The translations under genes were made by a program, and so were the position numbers. The notes under the pieces were generated by a model. That model did no database searches. It saw only the letters and a program-made list of their open reading frames with translations, and was not told the origin of the DNA. Positions 34,497 to 62,498 of a stretch of DNA of 64,000 nt are shown here, piece by piece; the first letter of the stretch is position 1; each line of letters starts with the position of its first letter. The DNA comes from an uncultured Woeseiaceae bacterium (lineage in GTDB: Bacteria; Pseudomonadota; Gammaproteobacteria; Steroidobacterales; Woeseiaceae): the NCBI GenBank assembly GCA_964528965.1, contig CAZGVL010000006.1:10265-74264 (forward strand), read 5' to 3'.

Positions 34497-35675
34497 ATGG
34501 ATACCAATAACCGCCTGCTCTCCCTGGATATCTTCCGCGGTCTAACCATCGCGGCTATGATACTGGTCAATAACCCGGGTTCATGGAGCAGCGTTTACGC
34601 GCCACTGAGTCACGCTGACTGGCATGGTGCGACACCCACAGACTGGATCTTTCCATTTTTTCTATTCATCGTAGGTGTTGCCATTACTTACGCCATCGGT
34701 GGCGCGAAAGAGCGCGGCGCTGATCGGGGCGCGCTGATACGCAAAATATTGCTGCGCTCAGCAATCATTTTCGCTGTCGGTCTTTTTCTGTCGGGCTTTC
34801 CTTTCTTTGACCTGAGTCCTATTCGCATACCGGGTATCTTGCAGGGCGTCGCTCTGGTGTATGACGGGGAACTAAGCACTATTCGTATACCGGGTGTCTT
34901 GCAGCGTATCGCTCTGGTGTATGGCGCGGCGGCTATTCTGTTTATGTGGCTTAGCCCTCGCCAGATTTTTTTAGTTGGCATCGGCTGCTTGCTCGCCTAT
35001 TGGGCTCTAATGACATTGGTACCTGTGCCGGGCGGCTTCCCACCCAATTTTGAGCCGGCAACGAATATTGGAGCCTGGCTTGATAACGCGCTTTTGGGCG
35101 GCCACTTGTGGGCTCAGTCGAGAGTGTGGGACCCCGAGGGCCTACTCGGTACCATGCCGGCGATCGCCACCTGCATCAGTGGCATTCTGACCGGAGTGTG
35201 GCTACGCGGTGCCAGGGGCGAGTACGAAAAGGCGGCGGGGATGATGGTAGCTGGCGCGACGCTGGTTGCCGCCGGTCTGATCTGGAATACGGTGTTCCCA
35301 ATCAACAAGAGTCTCTGGACCAGCTCTTATGTGTTGTACACAAGTGGCCTGGCTTTGCTGTCACTCGGTGTCGTGTACTGGTGGGTAGACATCAAAGGCC
35401 ACCGCCGCGGCACGGAACCATTTATCGTCTACGGTACCAACCCTCTGATCGTCTTTGCCCTTTCCGGGGTCATCGGCAGGCTGGAGAATTACCTACACGT
35501 GACAACCCTGAACGGGGATACTGTTAGCCTCAAAACGTGGCTATGGCAGACGCTCTTTGAGCCTGCGTTTGGGTCACCGTATGTGGCATCGTTAGCACAT
35601 GCGATTATGTATGTACTGCTAATGCTGGCCATCGCGTGGCTCTTGTATTCCAGAAAAATATTCATCAAAGTCTAG
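34497..35675 (+). CDS. Transmembrane acyltransferase of the heparan-alpha-glucosaminide N-acetyltransferase-like family (DUF5009/DUF1624)
   Basis: 392 aa. RLLSLDIFRGLTIAAMILVNNPGSW...ADWHGATPTDWIFPFFLFIVGVAI and RIPGVLQRIALVY are hallmark motifs. About 11 TM segments. Confidence 0.8.
   Translation: MDTNNRLLSLDIFRGLTIAAMILVNNPGSWSSVYAPLSHADWHGATPTDWIFPFFLFIVGVAITYAIGGAKERGADRGALIRKILLRSAIIFAVGLFLSGFPFFDLSPIRIPGILQGVALVYDGELSTIRIPGVLQRIALVYGAAAILFMWLSPRQIFLVGIGCLLAYWALMTLVPVPGGFPPNFEPATNIGAWLDNALLGGHLWAQSRVWDPEGLLGTMPAIATCISGILTGVWLRGARGEYEKAAGMMVAGATLVAAGLIWNTVFPINKSLWTSSYVLYTSGLALLSLGVVYWWVDIKGHRRGTEPFIVYGTNPLIVFALSGVIGRLENYLHVTTLNGDTVSLKTWLWQTLFEPAFGSPYVASLAHAIMYVLLMLAIAWLLYSRKIFIKV
34821..34923 (+). 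repeat. In-frame 60-bp tandem duplication inside the acyltransferase gene (IRIPGILQGVALVY / IRIPGVLQRIALVY)
   Basis: Unit 1 (34821-34863) and unit 2 (34881-34923) share 38 of 43 nt. The period is exactly 60 bp (20 codons, aa 109-122 and 129-142). Confidence 0.9.
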
Positions 35676-35714
35676 CTCATCGCCTGAACGCAACTCACCA
35701 CAGTTGGATAATCA

Positions 35715-37040
35715 ATGAGAGTTCGATACCTGAGTACTACTACCGCGTTACTCGTGCTGCATGCAGCCACAACTGTATTAGCTGGCGGCCTGAACGCAGA
35801 CGAACAACGTATGGTCGACTGGATTGATGCGAATGCAGCAGTGGCCATCGACTTGCTCGAAGAAACCGTGAGCATCAGCAGCGGCACGATGAATCACCAG
35901 GGCGTTCGAGATGTCGGCGTGGTCATGGGACGAGAGCTTGCTGCGCTTGGCCTGCAAACCGAATGGATCGAGATGCCTGAAGAAATGGGCAGGGCCGGGC
36001 ATATGTTTGGTCGCAAACTCAACGGCAAGGGTCCAAAGTTTCTGATGATTGGTCATCTCGACACTGTTTTCGAAGCGGATGATGGCTTCCAGTCCTACGT
36101 GCGTGAAGGAGATGTGGCGCGGGGTCCGGGCGTTGATGATATGAAGTCGGGCAATGTGATCATTGTTTACGCGCTCAAAGCTCTCGAAGAGATCGGCGCG
36201 CTGGATGACTTGTCCGTGGTCGTTGCTTACACCGGCGATGAAGAGAACGCAGGTTCTCCATTGTCGATTTCAAAGTACGATTTGATTGAAGCGGGTAAGT
36301 GGGCGGACATATCGCTGGGTTTTGAAGGCGCTATTTCAGCAGACGGCCAGGACTGGGCGACGATAGCAAGACGCAGTTCGTCAAACTGGTCGCTTGAGGT
36401 CACCGGGAAGCAAGCGCATTCATCACGAATTTTTGATGACGATGTGGGGCATGGTGCGATCTTCGAGGCCGCTCGAATTCTGCACAGGTTTGATGAGGAG
36501 GTGCGTGGCGAAGAATATCTGACCTTTAACATCGGTTCGATTGTCGGTGGTACCGACGTCACGTATGACGAGCAGAAAAATCGCGGCACGGCGTTTGGCA
36601 AGAGCAATGTCGTGCCTAATCGCGTCATTCTGCATGGCGACATTCGTGCGATATCGCAGGAGCAGTTGGAGCGAACCCGCGACGCCATGCGCGCGATAGT
36701 TGCAGACCACTTGCCGTTGACGGACGCGAGCATTCAGTTTGAAGATCGCTATCCCGCAATGGCGCCAACCGAAGGCAACAGACAATTGCAGGCAGTAATG
36801 TCGCAGGTCAATGAAGATATGGGTCGCGGGCCAATGCCCACCCTTGATCCATCACGTCGTGGTGCTGCCGACGTGTCATTCGTCGCGCCGTACTCGGACT
36901 CGTTGGCGGGGCTGGGTGCTCTGGGCAAGGGCGGTCACACACCGAATGAAAGCCTGGACCTGACCTCGATCCCTGTTTCGATCAAACGTGCGGCGCTATT
37001 GATCTACCGGCTTGCCAACGAAGACCGGGGCGAAGATTAA
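35715..37040 (+). CDS. Exported M20 family metallopeptidase (carboxypeptidase G2-like)
   Basis: 441 aa with a signal peptide (...AATTVLAGG). Motifs: IGHLDTV, GVDDMKSG, GDEENAGS. Confidence 0.85.
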   Translation: MRVRYLSTTTALLVLHAATTVLAGGLNADEQRMVDWIDANAAVAIDLLEETVSISSGTMNHQGVRDVGVVMGRELAALGLQTEWIEMPEEMGRAGHMFGRKLNGKGPKFLMIGHLDTVFEADDGFQSYVREGDVARGPGVDDMKSGNVIIVYALKALEEIGALDDLSVVVAYTGDEENAGSPLSISKYDLIEAGKWADISLGFEGAISADGQDWATIARRSSSNWSLEVTGKQAHSSRIFDDDVGHGAIFEAARILHRFDEEVRGEEYLTFNIGSIVGGTDVTYDEQKNRGTAFGKSNVVPNRVILHGDIRAISQEQLERTRDAMRAIVADHLPLTDASIQFEDRYPAMAPTEGNRQLQAVMSQVNEDMGRGPMPTLDPSRRGAADVSFVAPYSDSLAGLGALGKGGHTPNESLDLTSIPVSIKRAALLIYRLANEDRGED

Positions 37041-37055
37041 TAACGCAGCAGGCTG

Positions 37056-38303
37056 TTACCGAAACCTGTTCAGGTCGGGCGTGAATTCGCGGTCACGGTT
37101 GAACTCCAGTTCGTGTATTGCCTGTCCCAGATCGCGCAGGAAGGGGAGCGCAGTTTCGTCATACTCGTAGTTGTCGTCATTGAAAGTCTCATTCGCATTC
37201 GTGTAGATCGTTGCTGCCAGGATGAATTCAACGCCATTCTCGAAATCGACAATGTATGCGCTGTCGGTCAAGAAGCCGTAAGCATCGCCTGGTTTGTTGA
37301 AAATGCGAATGTGGTCGGGAATGGATGGTGCTGATCCGCCGTAGATGAAGAACTTTACGTAGCCTTCAGGATATTCAGCAGGATCCGAGTATTGTTCGAT
37401 GCCGCTCTCGCTCGGGTACGCCGACATGTTTTCGTAAACAAACTGATAGTCGTCATCCGTAAGGTCGAAACGACGTTCCTCTGTTACAGACGACGGAAAC
37501 ATCAACGCCTGCATTACGTCATGCTGATCCTGCAGCGAGAACACATTGTTGGCACTAAAGTCCTTGGGTCGCGAAAGCCGTTGTCCATCCACCATTTCCG
37601 CGCGGCCGAGGAGTATCGGATCGGTTCCCTCGTATTCGGTCTCGCTGACCTGCGCCGCCTGTTCATAAATGACGCTGTCGTTGCTGACAAATGCGACTGG
37701 GTTCGTTGCACGGTTTTCCTCGGCATTGCGTGCGATCTCAAGTCGATGAAATATGCGGGTGTTCTGTAGACCTTTCTTCCGCAACGATTCATTCAGCTGC
37801 TGCTGACCAATGAACTCGTAGAGCCGATTGTAGGCATCATTGTCGCTGACCAGCAGTACCTTGCGAATGTAATGACCGATGGATGGCAGGCCGTTGGCTG
37901 CGCTCGGGTCTGTGATCACCGGTGTTTGCATGTCGGTCGCAACGTCGGTCAGCATCGTCGTATCTCGGCTAAGGCCGGCAATATTCAGCCCATTCAATTT
38001 CTCGAGGGCTAGCAAAGATGTTGGCAGTTTTACCGTGCTGGCGGGATAGAAATACTCGTCCGGATTGAGGCGATAACTGTAGGACTGGAAACTCGGTTGA
38101 TTGTCGGCATCGCGATCAATCTGCGTGTAGATAATTTGTACGCGGTAGGTCTCGGCGTTATCCAGGATGTTCGAAAAACGTTTCGGCTGGGAGCGCAGGA
38201 AGTCTTCGAGAGAGCCATGCCATTCGTCGTTCGGCTGACATGCGCCGAGCAACCCGGATGTCGCAAGAAGAACTACTGCCAAACGAGAAATGCTCATCGT
38301 CAT
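37056..38303 (-). CDS. Lipoprotein serine hydrolase, class A beta-lactamase/DD-peptidase-like
   Basis: 415 aa with lipobox LLATSGLLGAC. Motifs: SxxK (ASTVKL), SDN (LLVSDNDAY) and a KTG-equivalent (NKPGDAYG). The start overlaps the ldcA stop (ATGA). Confidence 0.8.
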   Translation of the reverse strand: MTMSISRLAVVLLATSGLLGACQPNDEWHGSLEDFLRSQPKRFSNILDNAETYRVQIIYTQIDRDADNQPSFQSYSYRLNPDEYFYPASTVKLPTSLLALEKLNGLNIAGLSRDTTMLTDVATDMQTPVITDPSAANGLPSIGHYIRKVLLVSDNDAYNRLYEFIGQQQLNESLRKKGLQNTRIFHRLEIARNAEENRATNPVAFVSNDSVIYEQAAQVSETEYEGTDPILLGRAEMVDGQRLSRPKDFSANNVFSLQDQHDVMQALMFPSSVTEERRFDLTDDDYQFVYENMSAYPSESGIEQYSDPAEYPEGYVKFFIYGGSAPSIPDHIRIFNKPGDAYGFLTDSAYIVDFENGVEFILAATIYTNANETFNDDNYEYDETALPFLRDLGQAIHELEFNRDREFTPDLNRFR

Positions 38304-39343
38304 GCAACGGCTGCCTCCAACAGCTGCAGCGTTCCGGCATCAACGTTCAGCTCTGCCTCGATACCGACAGGCACCACCGTCTGGTCGTCAACATGGCCAA
38401 ACATCAGCCCACGAATGACCGGAACACCGAGGTTGGCGCAGCGATCGCGAAAAACCTCTTCGAGGCTGAACGTATTGCCGCTGGACTCACTGTCTGTGAA
38501 CTTTCCGAAGGCTATTCCAGCAACCTGCTGCAACTTGTTGGCGAGCAATAGCTGCGTCAACATGCGGTCAACACGGTAGGGTGCCTCCCCAACGTCTTCG
38601 AGAAACAGGATGCGGTTCGCAAACTCCGGTTCGTAGTCGGTTCCCATCAGACTGGCAATCAACGAGAGGTTGCCGCCGACAAGAGGGCCCCGTGCGGTAC
38701 CGCCGACAATGCGCGTGATTCGATTCTCCGTATCAATCTTGCCCTCGCCAGCTTCGAATGGCGGCGCCGCAGCAATAAAGGTCCGCGGCGTTGGCTCCAT
38801 CAAGACTTTCTTGAATTCTGCCAGCGTGTAATCAGAAAAATTCTCTATAGCAATAGGGCCGTGATATCCGACCAGACCCGTCTTGGCGTGAATGGCGGTG
38901 ATGATCGCGGTGATATCGCTGTAGCCGAGCAACACCTTCGGATTTCGCGAAATCAGCTCATAGTCGAGAAAGGGCAGGATGCGGGGAGTTCCGTAGCCGC
39001 CGCGCAGACAAATGATGGCGTCAACGTCGCTATCCGCGAACATGCTGTTCACATCGTCAGCACGTTGCTGATCCGTTCCGGCCAGGTAGGCGGTGCGGGC
39101 AAACAGGTGTTTACCGTGTTTCACATTGAAGCCAAGCGACTTGATGATGTCGGTTGCCGCTCGGATGTCTTCGTCTTCTGTCGCGTTACTGGCTGGCGCG
39201 ATCATGCCGAGAGTATCGCCTTTCTTCAGGCGAGCCGGCTTAATGATTTCAGGCGATGCTGTTGCCGCGGCGGCCTGAGATACTGAGATTGCGCCGACGA
39301 GTGAAGCGGCGATGGCGGACTGTATAGCTGTTCTACGGTTCAT
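38300..39343 (-). CDS. ldcA: LD-carboxypeptidase (peptidase S66) with a Tat-like signal peptide
   Basis: 347 aa. The N-terminus is MNRRTAIQSAIAASLVGAISVSQAAAA. The nucleophile motif is LLGYSDITAI and the C-terminal part has ...GLMFGHVDDQ (catalytic His). Confidence 0.85.
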   Translation of the reverse strand: MNRRTAIQSAIAASLVGAISVSQAAAATASPEIIKPARLKKGDTLGMIAPASNATEDEDIRAATDIIKSLGFNVKHGKHLFARTAYLAGTDQQRADDVNSMFADSDVDAIICLRGGYGTPRILPFLDYELISRNPKVLLGYSDITAIITAIHAKTGLVGYHGPIAIENFSDYTLAEFKKVLMEPTPRTFIAAAPPFEAGEGKIDTENRITRIVGGTARGPLVGGNLSLIASLMGTDYEPEFANRILFLEDVGEAPYRVDRMLTQLLLANKLQQVAGIAFGKFTDSESSGNTFSLEEVFRDRCANLGVPVIRGLMFGHVDDQTVVPVGIEAELNVDAGTLQLLEAAVA

Positions 39344-39519
39344 GAGTGAGTTTGACGCCTGGCCGATTCGGGAGCTGCAAACGGTAACAGCTTGATTTCA
39401 TCTTGTGTAGCGGCCTGCAGTCTGTGCCTGCAAAATTTTTCCTGAGCAGCCATGCTGCGGAGTCAACATAAGTCCTTATGACGAATGGATTCGTTGCAAC
39501 AGGAACAAATTGGACTATT

Positions 39520-40374
39520 ATGACCGCCATGTCCTGCCTCTCTGTTATTCATTCTGCTCGCGACGTTATGTCGGCAAATGAGAAGAAGCTCGCCGATTTC
39601 GTGCTCGAGAACGCGCCCTTGATTCGCGATTACTCGTCGCAGCAGATCGCCAGAGCCGTTGGCGTTAGCCAGTCCAGTGTCGTGAAGTTCAGCCAAAAAC
39701 TGGGTTACAGGGGTTTCACTGATTTGAAACTCGCAGTACATGAGTCGGTGGTAATTCAGGAGACCAGCGAATCTGCAACGCACAATAACGCTGACGTGTT
39801 CGACGAAGAACAACCCATCAACGACTGGTTGTGTACGAGAAAGCGCGAGGCGTTGAACAATGTTTCTCAAATAAACAATAACGATACGGTGCTGGCTGCC
39901 GTGCGTGCTATCGAGGTTGCTTCGAGGGTGCAGATAGTCGGTACTGGTAGCGCCGGGCTGGTGGCAAAGGATATGTCGTACAAGCTTATCGAGCTTGGTA
40001 AGTCTGTGGTTGCAGAGAGTGATCGAGAGGTGCAGCTACTCGGCATTGACGCGTTGCGACAGAATGACTGTCTGGTCGTTATTTCCAGATCGGGGCAGGC
40101 ATCCCATATTGTGGATGCGGCGAAGTTGGCCAGGAAAGCCGGTGCAGTCGTAGTATCGATAACGAACCAGTGGGCCAATCCGCTCGGCGCGATTTCGGAT
40201 ATTCGTCTGTATTCATTTTCCAATGGCGACAGCCCGCATATCACCAATCTTATCGTCGCGGCGTCGCAGCAACACCTGATTGATCTTATCTACTGCACAC
40301 TGCGCCAGCGAGCGAGTCGCGGCAAGAAACCGACCATGCTGGATGAACGAAAGAGCGTAAGCGGCCAGCAGTAA
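39520..40374 (+). CDS. MurR/RpiR-family transcriptional regulator (HTH_6 + SIS)
   Basis: ...LSVIHSARDVMSANEKKLADFVLENAPLIRDYSSQQIARAVGVSQSSVVKFSQKLGYRGFTDLKLAV is the RpiR HTH pattern, and the SIS domain follows (VQIVGTGSAGLVAKD...VVISRSGQ). The start is ambiguous: 39478, 39520 or 39529. Confidence 0.85.
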   Translation: MTAMSCLSVIHSARDVMSANEKKLADFVLENAPLIRDYSSQQIARAVGVSQSSVVKFSQKLGYRGFTDLKLAVHESVVIQETSESATHNNADVFDEEQPINDWLCTRKREALNNVSQINNNDTVLAAVRAIEVASRVQIVGTGSAGLVAKDMSYKLIELGKSVVAESDREVQLLGIDALRQNDCLVVISRSGQASHIVDAAKLARKAGAVVVSITNQWANPLGAISDIRLYSFSNGDSPHITNLIVAASQQHLIDLIYCTLRQRASRGKKPTMLDERKSVSGQQ

Positions 40375-40387: not shown

Positions 40388-41647
40388 TCAGGGCTGGTCC
40401 ATTCCAATAATGCTGTCGTAGTCGGGTCTGGCGCGGACTACTCTAAACTCATCATTACTGACCATAACTTCCGGCACCAGTGGGCGCGTGTTGTACCCCG
40501 ATGCCATGACGCTGCCGTAGGCGCCGGCCCCCTCAATAATGACGAGGTCACCTGCGTGTTGTCTGCTCAGTCGACGCTCGCGGGCAAAGGTATCGCCGGT
40601 TTCGCAGACCGGGCCAACCACGTCATACACGACCTCGTCATCGCTGCTTTGTGTTTCAGCGGAAATATGGTGAAAGGCGTCGTACATGCTGGGTCGCAGG
40701 AAGTCGTTCATGGCAGCATCGATGATCAGGAACGTCACGCCCGCACCTTCTTTGACGTAAATCACGCTGCCAACGAGTACGCCTGCATTGCCGACGATGG
40801 ACCGTCCTGGCTCGAGAATAAAACGGCAGTTAAGATGGCCGAGCTTGTTAGCGGCCAGTGCTGCATATTGCTCGATGGCAGGTGCACGATCATTACTTGC
40901 GTCGTAATTAATGCCGAGCCCGCCGCCAAGGTCCACAGTAGAGATCGAGTGCCCATCTTCCTGAAGTTGCTGCACGAGCGCTGCGATGCGCTCGAAGGCC
41001 TGCGCGTAGGGGTCAAGGCTCATAATCTGTGAGCCAATGTGAATGTCGATTCCAGAAACGGCAATTCCCGGCAGTGCGGCTGCCGCCGAGTAGGCTTCGC
41101 GAGCAGATTGCCACGGAATACCAAACTTGTTTTCCGACTTGCCGGTAGATATTTTCTCATGCGTACCGGCATCAATATCCGGATTGATCCTGAATGCGAT
41201 ACGTGCGGTCTTGCCAAGGCGGTCGGCAGCAGCGCTTATCTGATGCAGCTCAGGTATCGATTCCACGTTGAAGCACAGGATATCGTTGTGTAGCGCAAAC
41301 TCGATTTCGGGCAGCGTCTTTGCCACTCCGGAGTACACGATTTTCGACGATGGTATGCCTGCCAGTAGCGCGCGTCGCAGCTCACCTTCTGAAACTACAT
41401 CAGCGCCTGCACCGCGTGATGCCAGTAAGCCAATAACCGCCTGATTTGAATTCGCTTTAACGGCGTAGCAAACCAGAGTTTCGAGTTCACTAAAAGCCGA
41501 CGCATAGGCATCGTATGCGGTTTCGATCGCCGCCTGCGAATAGCAGTAAAAAGGCGTCGCACAGGACTGTTCGATGCGCCGCACCGGCACATTCTCGACG
41601 CAGTATTCTCCACCCTTGTATGTGAAATCCGGCACTCGAGCCTCCAT
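40388..41647 (-). CDS. lysA: Diaminopimelate decarboxylase (type III PLP enzyme)
   Basis: 419 aa. Motifs: CYAVKANSNQAV (PLP Lys), DLGGGLGINY, ...EPGRSIVG..., CETGD. Full-length LysA-like; substrate specificity is not proven. Confidence 0.8.
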   Translation of the reverse strand: MEARVPDFTYKGGEYCVENVPVRRIEQSCATPFYCYSQAAIETAYDAYASAFSELETLVCYAVKANSNQAVIGLLASRGAGADVVSEGELRRALLAGIPSSKIVYSGVAKTLPEIEFALHNDILCFNVESIPELHQISAAADRLGKTARIAFRINPDIDAGTHEKISTGKSENKFGIPWQSAREAYSAAAALPGIAVSGIDIHIGSQIMSLDPYAQAFERIAALVQQLQEDGHSISTVDLGGGLGINYDASNDRAPAIEQYAALAANKLGHLNCRFILEPGRSIVGNAGVLVGSVIYVKEGAGVTFLIIDAAMNDFLRPSMYDAFHHISAETQSSDDEVVYDVVGPVCETGDTFARERRLSRQHAGDLVIIEGAGAYGSVMASGYNTRPLVPEVMVSNDEFRVVRARPDYDSIIGMDQP

Positions 41648-41800: not shown

Positions 41801-43177
41801 ATGACCGCCGACTGGACAACTGTTCTCCCACCGTTGGTCGCAATAGCGGCAGTGTTGTGGCGCAAGGAAGTCATTGTCTCACTGGTTCTGGCAATTTTTA
41901 CGGCCGAGCTGTTGCAGATTACATTAACCTGGACCGCACCACTTCCGGCGATGTTGAACACTATCGAACGAACCGTGGGCGTGTTCGGCGATGCCGGCAA
42001 CGCCCGTCTGCTGATATTCAGTTTGCTGATTGGGGCGCTACTCGGGTTCGTGCGCGAATCGGGCGGAGTTGGCGCGATGGTTGCGAAGCTGGTCAACAAA
42101 GGCATTGCACGAACTGCCAGGCGCACAACTTTGCTAACCAGCGCGGTGGGTACCATCGTTTTCGTTGAATCTAATCTGAGCGTACTGACGGCTGGAATAC
42201 TGTCACGTGGATTGTTCGACAAGTTTGGTCTGAGCAGGGCCAAGCTTGCTTACATCATTGACAGTACGTCCGCACCGATCTGTATTCTTATCTTGCTGAA
42301 CGGCTGGGGTGCTTTCGTTCTGGCACTGCTTAGCGATTATGATTTGAACGCGTCTGCTGCAACGATCTTGTGGGGCACAGTACATCTTAATTTTTACGCC
42401 ATCGTAACTCTGATAATCGTCTTCTATACCGCGTACAGCGGCAAGTACTATGGGCCGCTCGCTCGCAGTGTGCCGGAAACGAGCGAAGTTACAGCAGAGA
42501 TTACGGAGGTCGCGGCCTCGAAGGCGCGCTACATGGTGGTACCTCTGGCCGTCATGATTTTCGGTATGCTCGGTTTCATGTACTGGACGGGCAACGGCGA
42601 TCTCGCCGCCGGCAGTGGTTCCAAATCTGTCCTGTATGCAACCGTGCTGGCGATTCTCGTGGCGTATTTTCAGCTGATTTTCAGCGGTCTGTTCGATCAC
42701 CTGAAGCTCGTCAGGATAGGCTTTGACGGCATGGGTGAGTTGCTGCCGCTGGTCGCCATTGTGCTGCTGGCACTTGCGCTGGGATCGAGTCTGCGTGATC
42801 TCGGTACCGGTGTATACATTGCCGGCCTGGTTGGCGAAAACCTGCCGCTGTTCCTGATACCGGCGACGCTGTTTCTTGCCGGCGCCTTAATATCATTCTC
42901 GACGGGGACGTCATGGGGCACGTTCGCCATCCTCATTCCACTGGGCATGCCTTTGGCGGTATCGATGGAACTGCCGCCGTCACTACTATTGGGCGCTATA
43001 CTCGGTGGTGGCGTATTTGGCGATCACTGTTCCCCGATATCCGATACGACCGCGATATCGGCAATTGCGTCGGGATGCGATCTTCTTGAGCACGTCAAGA
43101 CGCAGCTGCCGTATGCATTGTTTGGCGGCGCTATCGCCTTTGTCATGTACATTGTCGCCGGGCTTGTTCTGCTCTAG
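41801..43177 (+). CDS. NhaC-family antiporter/transporter
   Basis: 458 aa, polytopic. Has the characteristic GGGVFGDHCSPISDTT motif near the C-terminus. Confidence 0.8.
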   Translation: MTADWTTVLPPLVAIAAVLWRKEVIVSLVLAIFTAELLQITLTWTAPLPAMLNTIERTVGVFGDAGNARLLIFSLLIGALLGFVRESGGVGAMVAKLVNKGIARTARRTTLLTSAVGTIVFVESNLSVLTAGILSRGLFDKFGLSRAKLAYIIDSTSAPICILILLNGWGAFVLALLSDYDLNASAATILWGTVHLNFYAIVTLIIVFYTAYSGKYYGPLARSVPETSEVTAEITEVAASKARYMVVPLAVMIFGMLGFMYWTGNGDLAAGSGSKSVLYATVLAILVAYFQLIFSGLFDHLKLVRIGFDGMGELLPLVAIVLLALALGSSLRDLGTGVYIAGLVGENLPLFLIPATLFLAGALISFSTGTSWGTFAILIPLGMPLAVSMELPPSLLLGAILGGGVFGDHCSPISDTTAISAIASGCDLLEHVKTQLPYALFGGAIAFVMYIVAGLVLL

Positions 43178-48407: not shown

Positions 48408-48509
48408 GCGCGCTGTAACAAATCCGCGGCCGCCTTCAATTCGTTGTCGTGTCTGGCAAATCTTCCGAAGGCCATAAATACTTTGTGTCATCTCTTCGTA
48501 ACTCAGCTT

Positions 48510-52720: not shown

Positions 52721-52789
52721 AGTCGCAATCACTCCCCTGTGTGCCGTTTCCCCTCGGCAGCAGGGGCAGTGAATTGCGACTTTTTTTTT
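52721..52789 (+). terminator. Strong rho-independent terminator: two-tier ~24-bp hairpin followed by T8-9
   Basis: The outer stem is 52721-52733 / 52768-52781 (13 bp, one bulge). The inner stem is CCCCTG..TGCCG / CGGCA.CAGGGG (11 bp) with loop TTTCCCCT. A T-run at 52781-52789 follows directly. It lies 33 nt after the receptor stop. Coordinates were verified against flanking ORF translations. Confidence 0.8.
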
Positions 52790-52833
52790 GGGGCGGAGTC
52801 AGCCACGCTGGCAAAACCCATCGGCATGCAGCG

Positions 52834-55257: not shown

Positions 55258-56720
55258 ACATCAATATTGGACTCGTTGATTCAACTATCGTCATTGTCTA
55301 CATGGCGGCAGTACTCGGCCTGGGATTATGGATTGGTCGTGGCAAACAATCGTCTGCTGACTACTTCCTCGCGGACCGCTCCATGCCGTGGGGAGCATTG
55401 CTCCTGTCAATTGTCGCGACAGAGACCAGTACGGTTACCTTTCTCAGCTTGCCGGGCATCGCGGCTGCTGCTGGCGGTAACCTGACTTTCTTACAGATTA
55501 CCATCGGCTATGTTGTTGGCCGCTTGTTCGTCGTGTTCGTATTGCTGCCGCTATATTTTCAGGGCAAGCCGTTTTCTGCCTATGAGGTTCTTGAGTCACG
55601 CTTTGGTCGCTTGAGTCGCCGAACGGTTTCGACCTTGTTTCTGTTGACTCGTAACACAAGTGACTCACTACGCTTGTTCCTGACTGCCCTGGTGTTGCAA
55701 ATTGTCCTCGGGATTGATCTGAGTATTAGTGTCATCGTACTCGGCATCGTGACTATCCTGTATACCTTCATTGGCGGCGCGAAATCTGTCATCTGGAACG
55801 ACTGTATTCAGTTCGTTATCTATATCCTGGGCGCCGCAACTGCAGCAGTAATCATCGTTAATCTTGTTCCAGGCGGACTCGGGCAAATCATTGAGTCCGC
55901 GACGGCGCAAGACAAACTGAAGTTTCTCGATTTCGACTTCAGCCTCGTCAAGCCGTCAATGACATTCTGGGCCGGACTTGCAGGTGGCGCATTTCTGACC
56001 GCAGCCACACACGGCACCGATCAGCTGATGGTGCAGCGTTACTTGTCTGCCAAACGTCAGTCCGATGCTGCATTGGCTCTCGGCCTCAGCGGTTTTATCG
56101 TCTTGTTGCAATTCGCAATCTTCTTGCTGCTGGGTTTGGGGCTTGCCGTTCTGTTTCAGTCTACGGGCGAAATCGGTGGCGATACCGCGATGAAAAGCGA
56201 TCAGCTCTTTGCCCATTTCATCGTCAACTACATGCCGATCGGATTGCTTGGAATAACGCTGGCCGCAGTATTCGCGGCGGCCATGTCGACATTGTCCAGC
56301 TCGCTGAACTCATCTGCGGCGGTCTTTATTAACGATCTGTATCTTCCGCTGCAGGGCCGAGCACCAGAGCAAGGTGCCAGCCTGAGTGCCAGTCGAATTG
56401 CGACCATCGCATTTGGTGTGTTGCAAATTGCTCTGGCGATCATGTTTGGGCTGATAGGCACAGACGAAAGCACTGTCGCAAACGTTCTCAAGATCAGCGG
56501 TTTTGCTACAGGGCCTGTCCTGGGCTTGTATTTCCTGGCTGTGTTCGCGCCGCGCGTTGATCAGAGGTCAGCGCTGACGGGGTTTATCGCAGGCGTCGCG
56601 ATTCTGTCCGCGGTCGCCTATGGCAGCAGTCTCTATTGGGCCTGGTACGCACTGGTCGGTTCGCTAACAACGCTGGCCGTCGGGTCTGTGGTGCAGTTGC
56701 TACGGGGACATAAGAGCTAA
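55254..56720 (+). CDS. Sodium:solute symporter (SSS) family transporter
   Basis: 488 aa with about 13 TM segments. The N-terminus ...ADYFLADRSMPWGALLLSIVATETSTVTFLSLPG is the typical SSS signature. Its ATG overlaps the upstream stop (ATGA). Confidence 0.85.
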   Translation: MNINIGLVDSTIVIVYMAAVLGLGLWIGRGKQSSADYFLADRSMPWGALLLSIVATETSTVTFLSLPGIAAAAGGNLTFLQITIGYVVGRLFVVFVLLPLYFQGKPFSAYEVLESRFGRLSRRTVSTLFLLTRNTSDSLRLFLTALVLQIVLGIDLSISVIVLGIVTILYTFIGGAKSVIWNDCIQFVIYILGAATAAVIIVNLVPGGLGQIIESATAQDKLKFLDFDFSLVKPSMTFWAGLAGGAFLTAATHGTDQLMVQRYLSAKRQSDAALALGLSGFIVLLQFAIFLLLGLGLAVLFQSTGEIGGDTAMKSDQLFAHFIVNYMPIGLLGITLAAVFAAAMSTLSSSLNSSAAVFINDLYLPLQGRAPEQGASLSASRIATIAFGVLQIALAIMFGLIGTDESTVANVLKISGFATGPVLGLYFLAVFAPRVDQRSALTGFIAGVAILSAVAYGSSLYWAWYALVGSLTTLAVGSVVQLLRGHKS

Positions 56721-56773
56721 TGAACGCTGCCAACCATGTTGTTGCGGATGACCGAAGAGACTGCCGGCTGTCC

Positions 56774-57997
56774 TTAGCGGTACAGCAGGAATCGCGCACG
56801 TCGATCGCGAAAGTCGTTAAGGCCATCAATGTAACTGGCGGAGATTTCAGCGTATCGCCGACCATCGATGACTGCGCGGTGCGCAGCATCGTTGCCCAAC
56901 AGGCGAAGATAGGGTTCAGCCTCCCACGTGTCGGGGTAGTTGCGCCTAAGAAGATGAGCGATCTCGAGTCCGGTTCGGACAGGCTCAAATTGTTCTCGAT
57001 CAGTAATGGTCATGCGCAGGCCGCTACACTGCTCGCCGGAAAACTTGCTCGCGTCCGGCGTGAACTCAAGCGGCGCAAACGAAATCCCAGGCAGTTCAAG
57101 GTCGCTCAGCTGGGCAGCCAGTGCCACGCCATCGAGCCACGGCGCGCCAATAACTTCGAAAGGCGTGTCGGTCCCACGCCCCACCGACAAATTGGTCGTT
57201 TCCAGAATGCCGATGCCTGGATACAAAATCGCTTCGGTCAGGCTGCGCATATTGGGCGAGGGGTTGATCCATGGCAGGCTTGTCGTGTCGAAGAACTGCG
57301 CACGCTGCCAGCCTTCCAGTTTGACGACCTGCAGCTCGATGTCGATAGCCAGCTCATCCTTGAAGAGCAAGGCGAGTTCGCCAACCGTCATTCCGTGCCG
57401 GATCGGTATGCGATGAAAGCCGACGAACGATTGCTTGCCATCGTCAAGTACAGGGCCTGCAACGGCGGTGCCGTTGATCGGGTTCGGCCGGTCGAGAACG
57501 ACAAAGCGAACGCCGAGCTCGCTCGCTGCCTGCATGGCGTTACCCATGGTCGATATATAGGTATAGAAGCGCGTACCGATGTCCTGAATATCGAATACGA
57601 CCGTATCGATCTCATCGAGCATCGCAGGTGTTGGCCGACGCGTGTCTCCGTAGAGACTAAAAACAGAAATGCCGGTGTCGCTTTCAGTGCCATCACCAAC
57701 AACGGGGATGTCGAGCTTTCCCTCCAGCCCGTGTTCGGGACTGAAAATGCGCACGAGATCAACTACGTCGGCATCGTGCAGAATTCGGATGGTGCTTTTG
57801 CCGTGTCGATCGACACCCGTTTGATTGGTGATCAATGCAATCCGCTGCCCGCTGAGCGGTGCGAAATTATCACGCGACAAGACGTCAATGCCGGTCAGTA
57901 CCGGCACGCCTCGGTCACAGGCAGGCAATTGCATAATGCACAGCAGAAGCGCGATCCATCTGCTGTGGCGAACGAGGCTAGAGCACATAAGGTTCAA
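56774..57997 (-). CDS. namZ: DUF1343 family lipoprotein, NamZ-type exo-beta-N-acetylmuramidase candidate
   Basis: 407 aa with a TTG start (alternative ATG at 57988) and lipobox MQLPAC. DUF1343 pattern: TGIDVL...LSGQRIALITNQTGVD...VRIFSPEHGLEG...VVLDRPNPING...IPIRHGMTVGELALLF. The activity is inferred from characterised NamZ homologues. Confidence 0.8.
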   Translation of the reverse strand: MNLMCSSLVRHSRWIALLLCIMQLPACDRGVPVLTGIDVLSRDNFAPLSGQRIALITNQTGVDRHGKSTIRILHDADVVDLVRIFSPEHGLEGKLDIPVVGDGTESDTGISVFSLYGDTRRPTPAMLDEIDTVVFDIQDIGTRFYTYISTMGNAMQAASELGVRFVVLDRPNPINGTAVAGPVLDDGKQSFVGFHRIPIRHGMTVGELALLFKDELAIDIELQVVKLEGWQRAQFFDTTSLPWINPSPNMRSLTEAILYPGIGILETTNLSVGRGTDTPFEVIGAPWLDGVALAAQLSDLELPGISFAPLEFTPDASKFSGEQCSGLRMTITDREQFEPVRTGLEIAHLLRRNYPDTWEAEPYLRLLGNDAAHRAVIDGRRYAEISASYIDGLNDFRDRRARFLLYR

Positions 57998-58035
57998 TCA
58001 AATCAGCATAATTAGCGGACAGGTATAGTAGTGCA

Positions 58036-58932
58036 ATGCAAAAAGAATTAGCAACGGAGGCGCGTAATCCGGCGTCTGAAAACCTCGATCAATTGAGTAG
58101 CATCGAGTTTGTTCGTCTTGTCAACGATGAGGACGCAAAGTTAGCTGCGGCTGTCGCAACGCAGGTGGAAGAAATTGCAAAATCGATAGACCTGATAGCC
58201 GACCGACTTGAAAATGGTGGCCGCCTCATTTACATCGGTGCAGGAACATCGGGGCGGCTGGGCGTGCTTGATGCGTCCGAGTGCCCGCCGACATTCAGCG
58301 CGAAGCCGGAGCAGGTTGTGGGCCTGATAGCGGGCGGATTAGTGGCCTTGCAGCATGCCGTTGAAGGTGCTGAGGATGCGCTTGAGCAAGGTGCAGACGA
58401 TTTGCGCAATGTGAATATTTCGCACGCGGACGTGGTTGTTGGCATCGCAGCAAGCGGAAATACTCCGTATGTCATCGGCGCGCTCGACTGTGCGAACGAG
58501 TTGGGTGCTGGCACGGTCGGTTTAAGCTGCAACCCCGGAAGTGCGGTCTCGACGCGGGCACAAATCGGTATAGCCGTGGCCGTGGGGCCGGAGGTGTTAT
58601 CCGGGTCGACAAGAATGAAGGCAGGCACAGCGACAAAGATGGTGCTCAACATGCTGACAACGGGTGCGATGGTGCGGCTGGGCAAGACCTACGGAAACCT
58701 GATGGTCGATCTGCAGGCGTCGAATAGCAAGTTGGAGGATCGTTCGGTCAAGATTGTTCAACAACTGACCGATCTGTCCGAGGATGATGCACGCGAGCGA
58801 CTGGCCACCTGCGATGGAGAGCTGAAGACCGCTGTTGTCAGTTGTCAGCTGAGCCTATCGCCAGACGCCGCGCGAGCCAGGCTTGCAGAAGTGGGTGGCA
58901 GATTACGCGCCGCGTTGGGTGTCGGTGAATAA
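58036..58932 (+). CDS. murQ: N-acetylmuramic acid 6-phosphate etherase
   Basis: 298 aa. GRLIYIGAGTSGRLGVLDASECPPTF...VVGLIAGG..ALQHAVEGAEDA...VVGIAASGNTPYVIGAL...GLSCNPGSAVS...GSTRMKAGTATKMVLNML is near-identical in pattern to E. coli MurQ. Confidence 0.92.
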   Translation: MQKELATEARNPASENLDQLSSIEFVRLVNDEDAKLAAAVATQVEEIAKSIDLIADRLENGGRLIYIGAGTSGRLGVLDASECPPTFSAKPEQVVGLIAGGLVALQHAVEGAEDALEQGADDLRNVNISHADVVVGIAASGNTPYVIGALDCANELGAGTVGLSCNPGSAVSTRAQIGIAVAVGPEVLSGSTRMKAGTATKMVLNMLTTGAMVRLGKTYGNLMVDLQASNSKLEDRSVKIVQQLTDLSEDDARERLATCDGELKTAVVSCQLSLSPDAARARLAEVGGRLRAALGVGE

Positions 58933-59878
58933 GGCACCCGCCACTCTGATCCTGGGCGTCGATGGCGGTGGTACAAAAACTGCTGCGCGAATCGCGTCTG
59001 TCGACACGGACGGCAATATCCGTGAGCTCGGCGCGGGCTATGGCGGGCCGTCGAATGTTCGCGCCGTAGGCTCGCAACACGCGGTTACTAACCTCGATGT
59101 TGCTATCGATGCAGCGCATACCGCGGCTGGCACGACCAATGCCAGGCTCGACTATGCCGTGCTTGCGTTGGCTGGCAGTTCACTACCCGATGTTCAGGCG
59201 GTAATTATCGACTGGGCTGACCGCAGGCAGCTCGCTGATCAGGTCGATATTGTCCACGATGCGGAGGCTGTGCTGGCTGCCGGTATTCATAAAGACCACG
59301 GTATTGCGCTAATCGTTGGCACAGGATCGGTCGCACTGGGTACGGACGCTTCTGGCAATACGGCAGTTACCGGAGGCTGGGGCCACTGGTTTGGCGATCA
59401 GGGGAGTGGTTTTGATCTCGGCCGGCGGGCGCTGGCCGCCGTTGCTGATGCGGTTGATGGCATAGCCGCGCAAACGACGCTGGTTCGAGAGATTACTGCT
59501 CGACTGCAGGTTAGTGACCCGCGTGCGATAGCGCGCAAGCTAAGTCTGGCGGTCGATGTTCGGCAGGAAATAGCCGTGCTTGCTCCGATCGTGATGGCGG
59601 AGGCAATTGCTGGCGATGCGGTTGCCAAAAACATAGTCGATTCCGCGGCCGCAGCGGCAGCCGGGCTGGTCGTTGCGACGACTGCAAGACTGGGTCTCGG
59701 CAATAATGTGCCGCTGGCTCTGGCCGGCGGGATCGCATGCTCGGGTGATCTGTTTCGCAACAGTCTCCTGGCGCACCTGAATGCACATTCGATTCGACCG
59801 GAACCGATAACGGTAGTGACAGACCCGGTTGTGGGGAGTCTCGTTATGGCACGTGACCGTTTACCGGAAGGGCAGTAG
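58925..59878 (+). CDS. BadF/BadG/BcrA/BcrD-type N-acetylhexosamine kinase (GlcNAc and/or MurNAc kinase)
   Basis: ...LILGVDGGGTKTAARI... is the ATPase phosphate-1 motif, and IVGTGSVALG and GGWGHWFGDQGSG follow. The start is uncertain: the GTGs at 58925 and 58919 overlap the murQ stop, and the track TTG is at 58883. Clostridial MurK belongs to this family. Confidence 0.8.
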   Translation: MNKAPATLILGVDGGGTKTAARIASVDTDGNIRELGAGYGGPSNVRAVGSQHAVTNLDVAIDAAHTAAGTTNARLDYAVLALAGSSLPDVQAVIIDWADRRQLADQVDIVHDAEAVLAAGIHKDHGIALIVGTGSVALGTDASGNTAVTGGWGHWFGDQGSGFDLGRRALAAVADAVDGIAAQTTLVREITARLQVSDPRAIARKLSLAVDVRQEIAVLAPIVMAEAIAGDAVAKNIVDSAAAAAAGLVVATTARLGLGNNVPLALAGGIACSGDLFRNSLLAHLNAHSIRPEPITVVTDPVVGSLVMARDRLPEGQ

Positions 59879-61171
59879 ATGCAGGCGCCGAAAAGAAATC
59901 CGTGGTTCTGGATTCCCAGTCTCTACTACGCGCAAGGATTGCCATTCGTGGTCGTGATGACCGTCTCGGTCATCATGTACAAGCGCCTCGGAATATCCAA
60001 TACCGATATTGCGTTCTATACGAGCTGGCTGTATCTGCCGTGGGTTATCAAGCCGCTCTGGAGTCCGATCGTCGACATTATCAAGACGCGGCGACTCTGG
60101 ATCATCAGCATGCAGTTATTGGTCGGTGCGGGTCTGGCGGGTGTTGCGCTGACTATTCCGGGCAGTGACTTCTTCCGCTACTCGCTGGCAGTCCTTTGGC
60201 TGATCGCGTTTAGTTCGGCGACGCATGACATTGCTGCGGATGGCTTCTACATTACGGCCCTGAGTGAGCACGAGCAGGCGTGGTTCGTCGGCATACGCAG
60301 TACGTTTTTTCGACTTGCCATGATAACGGGGCAAGGGCTGCTGGTTATGGTTGCGGGTTATCTGGAAAGTAGGACAAACGACATCGGTCTTGCCTGGAGT
60401 CTTACTTTTTACTTGCTGGCAGGCCTGTTCCTGATCCTGTTCGCATGGCATCGCTTTGTACTTCCGGTGCCCGCGTCCGACGTGTCCCACCAGCCGGATT
60501 CCCTGACGGACGTTCTGCGTGATTCCGTACGGACTTTTGTGTCGTTTTTTCAGAAGGAAGGTATCGGCCGAATTCTCGCGTTCCTGTTGTTATATCGCTT
60601 CTCCGAGGCACAGCTTGCAAAACTATCGAGTCCATTCATGCTGGACGCACAAGCTGATGGAGGCCTCGAGCTTGGTACCGCGGTGGTCGGACTGACGTAC
60701 GGTACGGTCGGTGTGCTGATGTTAACCATCGGCGGCATCCTGGGCGGCATGCTCGTCGCACGGCATGGGCTGCATCGCTGGCTGTGGTGGATGGTCGCCG
60801 CAATCAACCTGCCCAATGTTGTCTATTTGTTGCTAGCGACCATGCAACCCGAGAACCTGATATTCATCAACATTGCGGTGGGCGCTGAGCAGTTCGGCTA
60901 CGGTTTCGGCTTTACAGCCTACCTTTTGTATATGATTTACATCGCTCGTGGGGCCCACAGTACAGCGCACTATGCGATCTGCACCGGTTTCATGTCGCTC
61001 GGCATGATGCTGCCCGGCATGGTTAGCGGCTGGTTGCAGGCGCTGCTCGGCTATCAGCATTTCTTTGTCTGGATATTGATTGCTACGATACCGTCGTTTG
61101 TGGCCGTCAAGTTAATTCCGCTTGAGCGTGGCTTTGGCAAGAGAGAAGCGCCACAATCTGCCACCAGTTGA
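59879..61171 (+). CDS. ampG: AmpG-family MFS muropeptide permease
   Basis: 430 aa. Its ATG directly abuts the upstream TAG. LYYAQGLPFVVV..., LYLPWVIKPLWSPIVD..TRRLW and SSATHDIAADGFYI are AmpG-family motifs. Confidence 0.85.
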   Translation: MQAPKRNPWFWIPSLYYAQGLPFVVVMTVSVIMYKRLGISNTDIAFYTSWLYLPWVIKPLWSPIVDIIKTRRLWIISMQLLVGAGLAGVALTIPGSDFFRYSLAVLWLIAFSSATHDIAADGFYITALSEHEQAWFVGIRSTFFRLAMITGQGLLVMVAGYLESRTNDIGLAWSLTFYLLAGLFLILFAWHRFVLPVPASDVSHQPDSLTDVLRDSVRTFVSFFQKEGIGRILAFLLLYRFSEAQLAKLSSPFMLDAQADGGLELGTAVVGLTYGTVGVLMLTIGGILGGMLVARHGLHRWLWWMVAAINLPNVVYLLLATMQPENLIFINIAVGAEQFGYGFGFTAYLLYMIYIARGAHSTAHYAICTGFMSLGMMLPGMVSGWLQALLGYQHFFVWILIATIPSFVAVKLIPLERGFGKREAPQSATS

Positions 61172-61244
61172 GCGTATCGTTGCCACAGCCAGATAGCAGT
61201 ATGCTCGTAAGGCACAAAAACATCCTTACAACGGAGAGTGAACA

Positions 61245-62498
61245 TTGGATTCGATAGAAGTAGTTGGCGGCAATACGCTCAGCGGCTCAGTTGCTGCCAG
61301 CGGTTCGAAAAACGCGGCGCTGCCGATTCTGTTCGCCACTCTGCTGGCAGACGGTGTTCACAGGTTCGAAAATGTCCCGCAATTACGCGATATTGATTCA
61401 ACCGAAGCGCTGCTCAGGGCCCTGAACTGCGAGACCGTTCGTGATGGCAACTCCATGCAGGTTACCGTGGCGCGGCCGAATAAAATGGAAGCGCATTATG
61501 ATCTGGTTCGCAAAATGCGTGCGAGCATTCTCTGCCTCGGTCCGCTGCTGGCGCGCTACGGCGAAGCCAGAGTGAGTCTCCCCGGCGGTTGTGCTATTGG
61601 CTCGCGACCGATCGACCTGCACGTGCAGACCATGCAGAAATTGGGTGCCGAAATTGAGATTGAGAGCGGCTATGTCATCGCCAGAGCAAAAAGACTGCAG
61701 GGCGATCGAATCCTGTTTGAACGTGTAACCGTCGGCGGCACGGAAAACGCACTCATGGCAGCCGTGCTGGCCGAAGGTACAACGGTGATTGAGAATGCTG
61801 CCAAAGAGCCAGAAGTTGTCGATCTCGTGCACTACTTACAGGCAATGGGCGCGAAAATCGAAGGCGAGGGAACCAGCGTCATAACAATAGAGGGCGTTAC
61901 CGAGCTGTCGCCGGCCAGTCACACTATTGTGCCGGATCGAATCGAGGCCGGAACGTTGCTTATTGCGGGCGCCATGACCGGCGGCCGTGTAACGGTTGAT
62001 CATTGCGTGCCAATACATCTGCAGGCATTGACCGACAAGATGCGTGACTGCGGCTTCACTATCCACACGGACGATACTTCCATCACCGTCGAGGCCATCG
62101 ACGAGTGGACCAGCACGGACATGGCAACGGCACCGTATCCAGCCTTTCCGACCGACCTGCAGGCGCAGTTTATGGTGCTCATGACGCAGGCGCGCGGCAC
62201 CTCTGTCATTACGGAAGGGATCTTCGAGAACCGGTTCATGCACGTACAGGAACTCGTACGTCTGGGCGCAAATATCACACCAATGTCCCAGGTTTCCATT
62301 GTGCGTGGTAACCCCGGAGAGTTGAGCGGTGCCAAGGTTATGGCAACGGATCTGCGGGCGAGCGCCTGCCTGATTCTTGCGGGCCTTGCAGCTAGCGGCA
62401 CGACGCTCGTCGGCCGTATTTATCATCTGGATCGCGGCTACGAATTTCTTGAGCAGAAGCTGGCGAGTCTGGGCGCTGACATCAAGCGCGTCGCCTGA
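61245..62498 (+). CDS. murA: UDP-N-acetylglucosamine 1-carboxyvinyltransferase
   Basis: 417 aa with a TTG start and GGAGAG 6 nt upstream. GSKNAALPILFATLLA, VSLPGGCAIGSRPIDLH (active-site Cys), FENRFMHVQEL and MATDLRASACLILAGLAA align with E. coli MurA throughout. Confidence 0.95.
   Translation: MDSIEVVGGNTLSGSVAASGSKNAALPILFATLLADGVHRFENVPQLRDIDSTEALLRALNCETVRDGNSMQVTVARPNKMEAHYDLVRKMRASILCLGPLLARYGEARVSLPGGCAIGSRPIDLHVQTMQKLGAEIEIESGYVIARAKRLQGDRILFERVTVGGTENALMAAVLAEGTTVIENAAKEPEVVDLVHYLQAMGAKIEGEGTSVITIEGVTELSPASHTIVPDRIEAGTLLIAGAMTGGRVTVDHCVPIHLQALTDKMRDCGFTIHTDDTSITVEAIDEWTSTDMATAPYPAFPTDLQAQFMVLMTQARGTSVITEGIFENRFMHVQELVRLGANITPMSQVSIVRGNPGELSGAKVMATDLRASACLILAGLAASGTTLVGRIYHLDRGYEFLEQKLASLGADIKRVA

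Follow-up and report, generated by a model that had tools for sequence, protein, structure and literature searches.

The 64,000-nt stretch of DNA analyzed here (the window), taken from contig CAZGVL010000006.1 of an uncultured Woeseiaceae bacterium, carries at positions 34497-62498 a gene cluster that probably represents a SusD-less locus of the CUT type (carbohydrate utilization genes with a TonB-dependent transporter) for the uptake and breakdown of soluble peptidoglycan fragments made outside the cell. The cluster contains a 990-aa Oar-type TonB-dependent transporter (the receptor; 49716-52688, plus strand) together with exported enzymes predicted to cut cell walls, inner-membrane carriers, cytoplasmic enzymes for amino sugars and stem peptides, and a MurR/RpiR-family regulator. 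Its gene map was compiled from a listing of open reading frames (ORFs) and hidden Markov model searches (Pfam, NCBIfam), which recovered in place all of the gene families that a previous sequence-only reading had named and added two genes absent from its list, encoding a NagX-like membrane acetyltransferase (34497-35675) and a 793-aa phosphoesterase lipoprotein (52876-55257). The genes lie on both strands and form nine transcription units. The G+C content is uniform across the window, so that the locus bears no mark of recent insertion.

The same neighbors recur around orthologous receptors in distant bacteria. A receptor-anchored scan, using one genome per species, yielded 80 loci with receptor identities of 50-69%, spread over Gammaproteobacteria (Woeseiaceae, Lysobacterales and others), Alphaproteobacteria (Robiginitomaculum, Hellea) and Acidobacteriota (Thermoanaerobaculia, Holophagales and others). 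In the loci of at least 15 kb, searched by tblastn with the window proteins, at least one of MurQ, NamZ and the AmiD-like amidase was detected within 10 kb of the receptor in 15/15 gammaproteobacterial, 9/9 alphaproteobacterial and 16/28 acidobacteriotal or other loci. A 20-kb neighborhood holds about 0.5% of the genes of a genome, and by inference chance would give about one such locus per hundred or fewer; the grouping is not a product of chance, because the same neighbors recur at 40 of the 52 loci of ≥15 kb from three phyla. The clustering described by the sequence-only reading is thereby borne out, and the linkage of the receptor to MurQ, NamZ or amidase, kept in Gammaproteobacteria, Alphaproteobacteria and Acidobacteriota, is stronger than the synteny which that reading had proposed to look for.

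The gammaproteobacterial gene order runs from a group comprising the NhaC-family carrier, a PF00144 hydrolase and alanine racemase to the leftward epimerase, YkfC-like peptidase and amidase genes, the last divergent from the receptor gene, which is followed rightward by the phosphoesterase gene (in parentheses in the consensus) and the sodium:solute symporter (SSS) gene and, after an interval, by a leftward namZ divergent from murQ, the kinase gene and the gene for an AmpG-like permease. Amidase and receptor genes are divergent in 15/15 gammaproteobacterial and 8/9 alphaproteobacterial loci, the epimerase is present in 15/15 gammaproteobacterial loci, where the NhaC carrier also stays beside the PF00144 hydrolase (BlaC), and the SSS carrier adjoins NamZ or the kinase in three phyla. 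LysA is close to the receptor in alphaproteobacterial and acidobacteriotal loci as well, and in several of the latter murQ lies directly upstream of the receptor gene on the same strand. The left arm of the locus (NagX, M20, BlaA, LdcA, MurR, LysA, NhaC) falls outside the 10-kb receptor flank and is syntenic in close metagenomic relatives.

Sequence profiles did not settle the identity of the receptor, which is assigned to the TonB-dependent transporters because of its fold. Pfam detects only an N-terminal CarboxypepD_reg domain, the barrel and plug match no Pfam or NCBIfam model, and a profile of 14 receptor homologues found no transporter in the PDB, while PF25183 (Oar-like barrel) is recorded by Pfam on many homologues. 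In a Foldseek comparison of the AlphaFold2 (AF2) model (mean pLDDT 58, with a poorly predicted plug region) against the PDB, 50 of the 50 best listed matches were TonB-dependent transporters, headed by FusA (2.7e-19, probability 1.00) and followed by YddB and FecA. The protein also begins with a signal peptide (...AGPALA/QQ), has a TonB-box-like EEIVVTG following the CarboxypepD_reg domain, and ends in KYQF, the last residue being the aromatic Phe, in agreement with the receptor assignment of the sequence-only reading. Its best genome matches are metagenome-assembled genomes of Woeseiaceae (66-69% identity), exact proteins being found only on metagenome contigs. Receptors from Gammaproteobacteria, Alphaproteobacteria and Acidobacteriota are at least 50% identical over ∼990 residues (loci L003-L082), and in the same loci cross-phylum identity is 51-57% for the receptor vs. 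45-51% for MurQ and ∼40% for NamZ; that the receptor is more conserved than the adjacent enzymes hints at lateral spread combined with strong constraint. Directly 3′ of the receptor stop codon, at 52722-52790 on the plus strand, is a hairpin followed by nine U residues (-50.2 kcal/mol, z = -6.5), likely an intrinsic terminator or attenuator that sets the receptor gene apart from those of the phosphoesterase and symporter. Such an element suggests that the receptor is highly expressed and that transcription partly reads through into the two genes downstream.

A set of enzymes predicted to act on the wall is encoded around the receptor. For six of them (amidase, NamZ, LdcA, YkfC-like peptidase and the two SxxK hydrolases) the N-terminal signals predict a location outside the cytoplasm. 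The AmiD-like MurNAc-L-Ala amidase (MurNAc, N-acetylmuramic acid; 48510-49499, minus strand) is a lipoprotein (lipobox LLSGC) with Amidase_2 and PG_binding_1 domains, and in a crude scan 33/33 orthologues had a hydrophobic N-terminus and 25/33 a lipobox. The product of 56774-57997 (lipobox LPAC) is a predicted NamZ-type exo-beta-N-acetylmuramidase (GH171) with the two-domain architecture of the family, PF07075 (NamZ_N; 3.6e-82, 275 bits) and PF20732 (NamZ_C; 9.4e-47, 160 bits), and matches the Bacteroides DUF1343 structure 4k05 (3.8e-80). NamZ is present as the sequence-only reading had it, and its coding strand is the minus strand, opposite to a longer plus-strand ORF (56720-58015, 431 aa); the latter was rejected as a gene, having no family match and lying antisense to namZ, and such a shadow ORF could mislead gene calling. 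The LdcA-like LD-carboxypeptidase (38300-39343, minus strand; S66, PF02016 and PF17676) starts with a Tat-like MNRRTAIQ...AAA, and an RRxF-type leader occurs in 11/21 of its orthologues.

The peptide side is further served by a lipoprotein (47022-48491, minus strand; lipobox LLQGC) with PF12913 (SH3b1) and PF00877 (NlpC/P60) domains, best matched in the PDB by the gamma-D-glutamyl-L-diamino-acid endopeptidase 3m1u (3.5e-17) and retaining the catalytic Cys and His motifs, DC(T/S)G and GH; a YkfC-like gamma-D-Glu-diamino-acid specificity is predicted from these domains and the 3m1u alignment. Two SxxK serine hydrolases are encoded. One is a divergent class-A-like lipoprotein, BlaA (37056-38303, minus strand; PF13354, Beta-lactamase2, 1.2e-18; lipobox LLGAC; motifs S89TVK, S153DN and K337PG), for which no PDB relative was found by sequence, and the other a PF00144 penicillin-binding-type hydrolase with DUF3471 and a Sec-type signal (43201-44787, plus strand), whose motifs S87NTK, Y182DN and H340TG resemble those of AmpH/R61-type DD-peptidases. 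An M20 metallopeptidase resembling glutamate carboxypeptidases (35715-37040, plus strand; PF01546 and PF07687) has a hydrophobic Sec-type signal, its best NCBIfam match being PRK06133, under cut-off.

Export signals are absent from the N-termini of MurQ, the kinase, the epimerase, alanine racemase and LysA, and a hydrophobic N-terminus was found by the crude scan in only 1/27 epimerase and 2/38 kinase orthologues, so that the division into exported and cytoplasmic enzymes described earlier agrees with the signals both in the window and in orthologues. MurQ, the MurNAc-6-phosphate etherase (58036-58932, plus strand), scores 412.2 bits against TIGR00274 (cut-off 302), and overlaps the gene for a BadF/ROK-type amino-sugar kinase of MurK/NagK-like character (58883-59878, plus strand; PF01869), whose best PDB match is the MurNAc/GlcNAc kinase 8zo3 (8.1e-33; GlcNAc, N-acetylglucosamine). 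Alanine racemase (Alr; 44791-45876, plus strand; TIGR00492, 350 bits, cut-off 168) and the diaminopimelate decarboxylase LysA (40388-41647, minus strand; TIGR01048, 467.9 bits, cut-off 297.9) are well above their thresholds. The enolase-superfamily protein at 45894-47009 (minus strand; MR_MLE_N/C) has NF041118 as its best NCBIfam match, at 261 bits vs. a cut-off of 500, followed by muconate cycloisomerase, and its assignment as an L-Ala-D/L-Glu epimerase-like dipeptide epimerase is supported by its constant gene context in the gammaproteobacterial loci. The regulator (39478-40374, plus strand; HTH_6 and SIS) is best matched by PRK11557 and MurR, under their cut-offs.

Three inner-membrane carriers are encoded: the SSS protein, a candidate amino-sugar carrier (55254-56720, plus strand; PF00474, and TIGR00813 above cut-off), an AmpG-like permease of the major facilitator superfamily (MFS; 59879-61171, plus strand; TIGR00901, 184.9 bits vs. 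a cut-off of 350) and the NhaC-family carrier (41801-43177, plus strand; PF03553, 5e-42). A second AmpG-like MFS protein (575 aa; 11923-13650, plus strand; 127.7 bits) has two PF13453 zinc-ribbon repeats at its C-terminus, which is unusual for a permease. The NagX/HGSNAT-like multi-pass membrane acetyltransferase is encoded at the left end of the locus on the plus strand (PF07786, 4.1e-5; NF046061 NagX, 4.2e-52, under cut-off); its gene is syntenic with those of the M20 peptidase and BlaA in close relatives and is also found in acidobacteriotal loci. At the right end is murA (61245-62498, plus strand; TIGR01072 above cut-off), which the sequence-only reading had included in the cluster. It is a recurrent neighbor (adjacent in L146; opposite strand in L037 and L048) of doubtful membership.

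A route can be proposed from family membership, predicted localization and conserved gene context. The Oar-type transporter would carry muropeptides or short glycan-peptide fragments into the periplasm, where the AmiD-like amidase would take stem peptides off MurNAc, NamZ would release MurNAc from non-reducing ends, the two SxxK hydrolases and the Tat-exported LdcA would trim D-Ala and cross-links, the YkfC-like peptidase would cleave the bond between gamma-D-Glu and meso-diaminopimelate (mDAP), and the phosphoesterase lipoprotein may strip phosphodiester-linked substituents. Transport of MurNAc, disaccharides and peptides or amino acids through the inner membrane would then fall to the SSS, AmpG-like and NhaC-family carriers. 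In the cytoplasm the kinase and MurQ would yield GlcNAc-6-P and D-lactate, the epimerase would act on L-Ala-D-Glu, Alr would convert D-Ala and LysA would convert mDAP to lysine. Cleavage of the GlcNAc-MurNAc bond and of polymeric strands, and the steps beyond GlcNAc-6-P, would be encoded elsewhere or be performed by other organisms.

The phosphoesterase (52876-55257, plus strand; lipobox LLAC) combines an orphan N-terminal helical domain with a part resembling purple acid phosphatases (PAP) and PhoD, and has more than 800 homologues of ∼800 aa. It is linked to an amidase by adjacency and by fusion in relatives, which counts in favor of the proposed function of the locus: in three homologues an Amidase_2+PKD protein precedes the entire phosphoesterase in a single fused chain, and in loci L009 and L010 the gene for this Amidase_2+PKD protein lies between those for receptor and phosphoesterase. 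The model (pLDDT 80.6) has a C-terminal PAP/PhoD-like fold (Foldseek: 3zk4, 2e-19; PhoD 2yeq, 3e-15). The N-terminal domain of ∼260 aa (52939-53716) is confidently modeled, always joined to the PAP/PhoD-like part, and marked by the invariant motifs GEDFPSxGIGHFIWFP, DAPFDE and GWGLxQVL. It has no Pfam match at E≤10 and no PDB profile match, and in Foldseek searches of the whole model against the PDB and BFVD the phosphatase part only was matched; the suggestion that this domain is lysozyme- or SLT-like found no support, the Pfam, PDB profile and Foldseek searches having given nothing for it. PhoD of B. subtilis has a role in the degradation of teichoic acids, and by analogy it may be speculated that the phosphoesterase removes phosphodiester-linked wall polymers. 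In 27 acidobacteriotal loci (L022-L081; e.g., L068, 12955-15072) a 705-aa protein of the sulfatase/phosphodiesterase superfamily with TPR repeats is encoded just downstream of the receptor, in the place occupied by the PAP-like phosphoesterase in gammaproteobacterial loci.

Several steps lack a candidate in the window, and the sequence-only reading went too far in finding an enzyme for every bond and full catabolism. The locus offers none for the GlcNAc-beta-1,4-MurNAc bond or for endo-cleavage of the strands, no lysozyme or lytic transglycosylase family was matched there, and tblastn across the 64 kb with sequences from relatives detected no nagA, nagB, GlcD-like oxidase, SpmA/B-like pair, GH3 or AnmK; the window has no GH3/NagZ, lysozyme or lytic transglycosylase, nagA, nagB, D-lactate dehydrogenase or anmK. 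Relatives supply part of this set. Many gammaproteobacterial loci have NagA and NagB (above curated cut-offs) and a GlcD-like FAD oxidase, plausibly a D-lactate dehydrogenase, between the SSS carrier and NamZ, many loci contain an SpmA/B-like ‘Gate’ membrane pair or DUF819, and GH3 adjoins NamZ in acidobacteriotal loci. The receptor of the cultured alphaproteobacterium Paremcibacter congregatus (CP041025.1) has as neighbors an AmiD-like amidase, a GntR regulator, GH3, an SSS carrier, a GH3-NamZ fusion, AnmK, a BadF kinase and NagA. The fusion (L147, 17354-20428), a 1024-aa protein with GH3 and NamZ_N+NamZ_C, would take GlcNAc and MurNAc in turn off glycan strands. With these added genes the locus family looks catabolic for the whole glycan. 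AnmK was found neither in the window nor in the 80 genome loci, and its absence together with a MurK/NagK-type kinase fits reducing-end MurNAc as substrate rather than the 1,6-anhydro products of the cell itself.

A number of observations weigh against import and catabolism of exogenous fragments as the function of the locus. The window has no GH3/NagZ, endo-muramidase, nagA, nagB or D-lactate dehydrogenase, and 12 of the 28 acidobacteriotal or other loci have no MurQ, NamZ or AmiD within 10 kb of the receptor. The AmpG-like MFS, epimerase, MurR, kinase, NagX and LdcA fall under curated equivalog cut-offs, and they are named from best match and context. The substrate of the receptor is predicted from neighboring genes only, the signal and lipobox calls were made by eye and regular expression and are heuristic, not the output of SignalP, LipoP or TatP, no operator common to all of the operons was found, and AmpG, LdcA and MurA are also genes of recycling or biosynthesis.

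A rival explanation is housekeeping recycling or salvage, in which mainly the products of the cell’s own turnover, or those that leak from it, are recovered for rebuilding of the wall and the receptor is minor or unrelated. The AmpG-like permease, LdcA, MurQ, MurR and Alr are all classic recycling or biosynthetic functions, murA recurs as a neighbor, and nagB and a D-lactate dehydrogenase are not in the window. However, self-products already in the periplasm need no TonB-dependent transporter, yet of all the genes in the cluster that of the receptor is conserved best across the three phyla; AnmK, Mpl, cytoplasmic AmpD and NagZ are absent from the window, LdcA and the amidase carry export signals, and relatives possess NagB and the GlcD-like oxidase, both of which are catabolic. 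Recycling is accordingly regarded as unlikely.

Still less probable is that the receptor imports peptides or proteins, from proteinaceous detritus or D-amino-acid peptides, with the amino-sugar genes merely co-located. The protein importers FusA and YddB are among its best structural matches, but the Foldseek ranking was obtained with a model of pLDDT 58 and is no indicator of substrate. Many exported peptidases are encoded in and near the locus, Woeseiales have been proposed to be protein degraders (PMC7082342), and some acidobacteriotal loci retain only peptide-side genes such as LdcA, LysA and BlaA; against this, genes of the sugar side (MurQ, NamZ, kinase, NagA, SSS) are those most frequently seen near the receptor, in many cases right beside it. 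A chance juxtaposition of unrelated cell-wall genes, for which only the mixed strand orientation speaks, is scarcely credible given that dozens of independent genomes and metagenome contigs show this order and content again. Uptake and breakdown of exogenous peptidoglycan fragments thus remains the favored function, and the proposal of the sequence-only reading that the organism feeds on external wall debris is supported for uptake and catabolism of such fragments but not for completeness of the pathway in the window.

The putative divergent control region between the amidase and receptor genes (49539-49665) contains two copies of the 13-bp palindrome GAATAnnnTATTC, a perfect one (49539-49551) and one with a single mismatch (49618-49630). 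Upstream of the receptor, a near-invariant block, GGAATAAAtAATTCTTTACTTTT...GATGATATTTTA (49617-49665 in the window), is present in all gammaproteobacterial relatives and reads as a putative -35 element and extended -10. Neither GGAATAAAWAATTC nor GAATAnnnTATTC is tenable as a shared operator, both being limited to the amidase/receptor spacer with window-wide counts not above those of shuffles, and a shared 9-mer, AAAGATTAG, is within chance expectation. Alignments of the LdcA/MurR, LysA/NhaC and NamZ/MurQ spacers revealed promoter-like conservation and no common palindrome, and no Rfam family was detected in the window. The divergent NamZ/MurQ spacer (57998-58035) is only 38 bp long, with TATAGT 8 nt before the MurQ ATG, so that either the promoters must extend into coding sequence or the MurQ transcript must have almost no leader.

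Upstream of the locus are genes for an M61 aminopeptidase with a PDZ domain (1995-3821), an M28 peptidase with PA and transferrin-receptor-like dimerization domains (PSMA-like; 25585-28005) and an M12B reprolysin-like protease with DUF11 repeats (29317-31335), a set that fits a detritus-degrading lifestyle. At least the M61 and M12B proteins have hydrophobic, signal-like N-termini, the M28 protein not obviously so.

Peptidoglycan and its D-amino acids form a large, nitrogen-rich share of bacterial necromass, and to our knowledge the route of wall fragments across the Gram-negative outer membrane is not known. More tentatively, and with slightly less than even confidence, the receptor may found a widespread, probably laterally spread family of muropeptide outer-membrane importers, and the locus a dedicated cell-wall necromass pathway of abundant sediment bacteria, the phosphoesterase stripping phosphodiester-linked wall polymers. 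The locus would provide a concrete genetic basis for cell-wall remineralization by Woeseiaceae-like bacteria, as well as a set of marker genes for metagenomes and cultured carriers. Woeseiaceae-like bacteria account for several percent of cells in marine sediments (PMC7082342), and the Woeseiales literature refers to ‘cell walls’ in general terms only (PMC7082342) and never mentions peptidoglycan or TonB. TonB is likewise never mentioned in a 2024 review of muropeptide transporters. The sequence-only reading was aware of no such locus, and a literature search also turned up no account of one and no link of a TonB-dependent transporter to MurNAc or muropeptides, although earlier work may exist.

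The families employed for most steps are those of peptidoglycan recycling in E. coli (AmpG, AmpD, LdcA, NagZ, AnmK, MurQ/MurR, Mpl), where AmiD is an outer-membrane lipoprotein amidase. In E. coli, however, the genes are dispersed over the genome, LdcA and AmpD work in the cytoplasm (LdcA and the amidase of the locus are exported), the pathway handles 1,6-anhydro products, for which AnmK is required, and a TonB-dependent receptor plays no part; AnmK, NagZ and Mpl, which belong to a pathway of this type, are all absent from the window. Closer clustering is seen in B. subtilis, where MurR, MurQ, an amidase and NamZ are encoded together in murQ-murR-murP-amiE-nagZ-namZ (PMC8054146), and an S66 carboxypeptidase, a dipeptide epimerase and an NlpC/P60 gamma-D-Glu-diamino-acid peptidase in ykfABCD. 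Being Gram-positive, B. subtilis has no outer membrane or receptor; it uses the phosphotransferase system protein MurP in place of an SSS carrier and kinase, has a NagZ that the window lacks, and keeps separate the sugar and peptide modules that are merged at the locus.

Use of exogenous MurNAc and muropeptides by a Gram-negative bacterium is known from Tannerella forsythia (MurT-MurK-MurQ, AmpG, NamZ1/NamZ2; PMC5790795, PMC7670621, 10.1101/2021.12.02.470905), which resembles the locus in its SSS-type carrier (a likeness of SSS family membership), MurNAc kinase, MurQ, AmpG-type permease and exported NamZ. Tannerella differs in salvaging MurNAc because it lacks MurA and MurB (murA is present at the locus), in having no peptide-side module (YkfC, epimerase, LysA, Alr), and in that no outer-membrane transporter is named in these papers on its scavenging. 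Bacteroidota polysaccharide utilization loci (PULs; SusC/SusD) also place a CarboxypepD_reg TonB-dependent importer beside lipoprotein hydrolases and a regulator, but the present host is proteobacterial, the lipoproteins of the locus are probably periplasmic, and no SusD-like partner was found among the locus ORFs scanned (23 map genes and the shadow ORF). The term ‘PUL-like’, applied to the locus previously, is consequently apt in the loose sense of a CUT locus and not in that of a Bacteroidota PUL.

The TonB-dependent loci for GlcNAc and chitin, comprising those of the Caulobacter NagA receptor, Xanthomonas Nag/Nix and Shewanella NagP/NagX/NagK (PMC13046382, PMC4173781), share with the locus a receptor, inner-membrane carrier, glycosidase, kinase and regulator, here represented in one cluster by the Oar-type receptor, the SSS, AmpG-like MFS and NhaC carriers, NamZ (GH171) and MurR/RpiR, and the NagX-like acetyltransferase and NagK_SO3507-like kinase extend the likeness. 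The locus differs from them in its predicted substrate, MurNAc-peptide material, in the Oar type of its receptor and in the large stem-peptide module attached to it. The enzyme families and the logic of such loci are known; what is new is the inferred substrate of the receptor family, the merged sugar-plus-peptide design and the phosphoesterase with its orphan domain.

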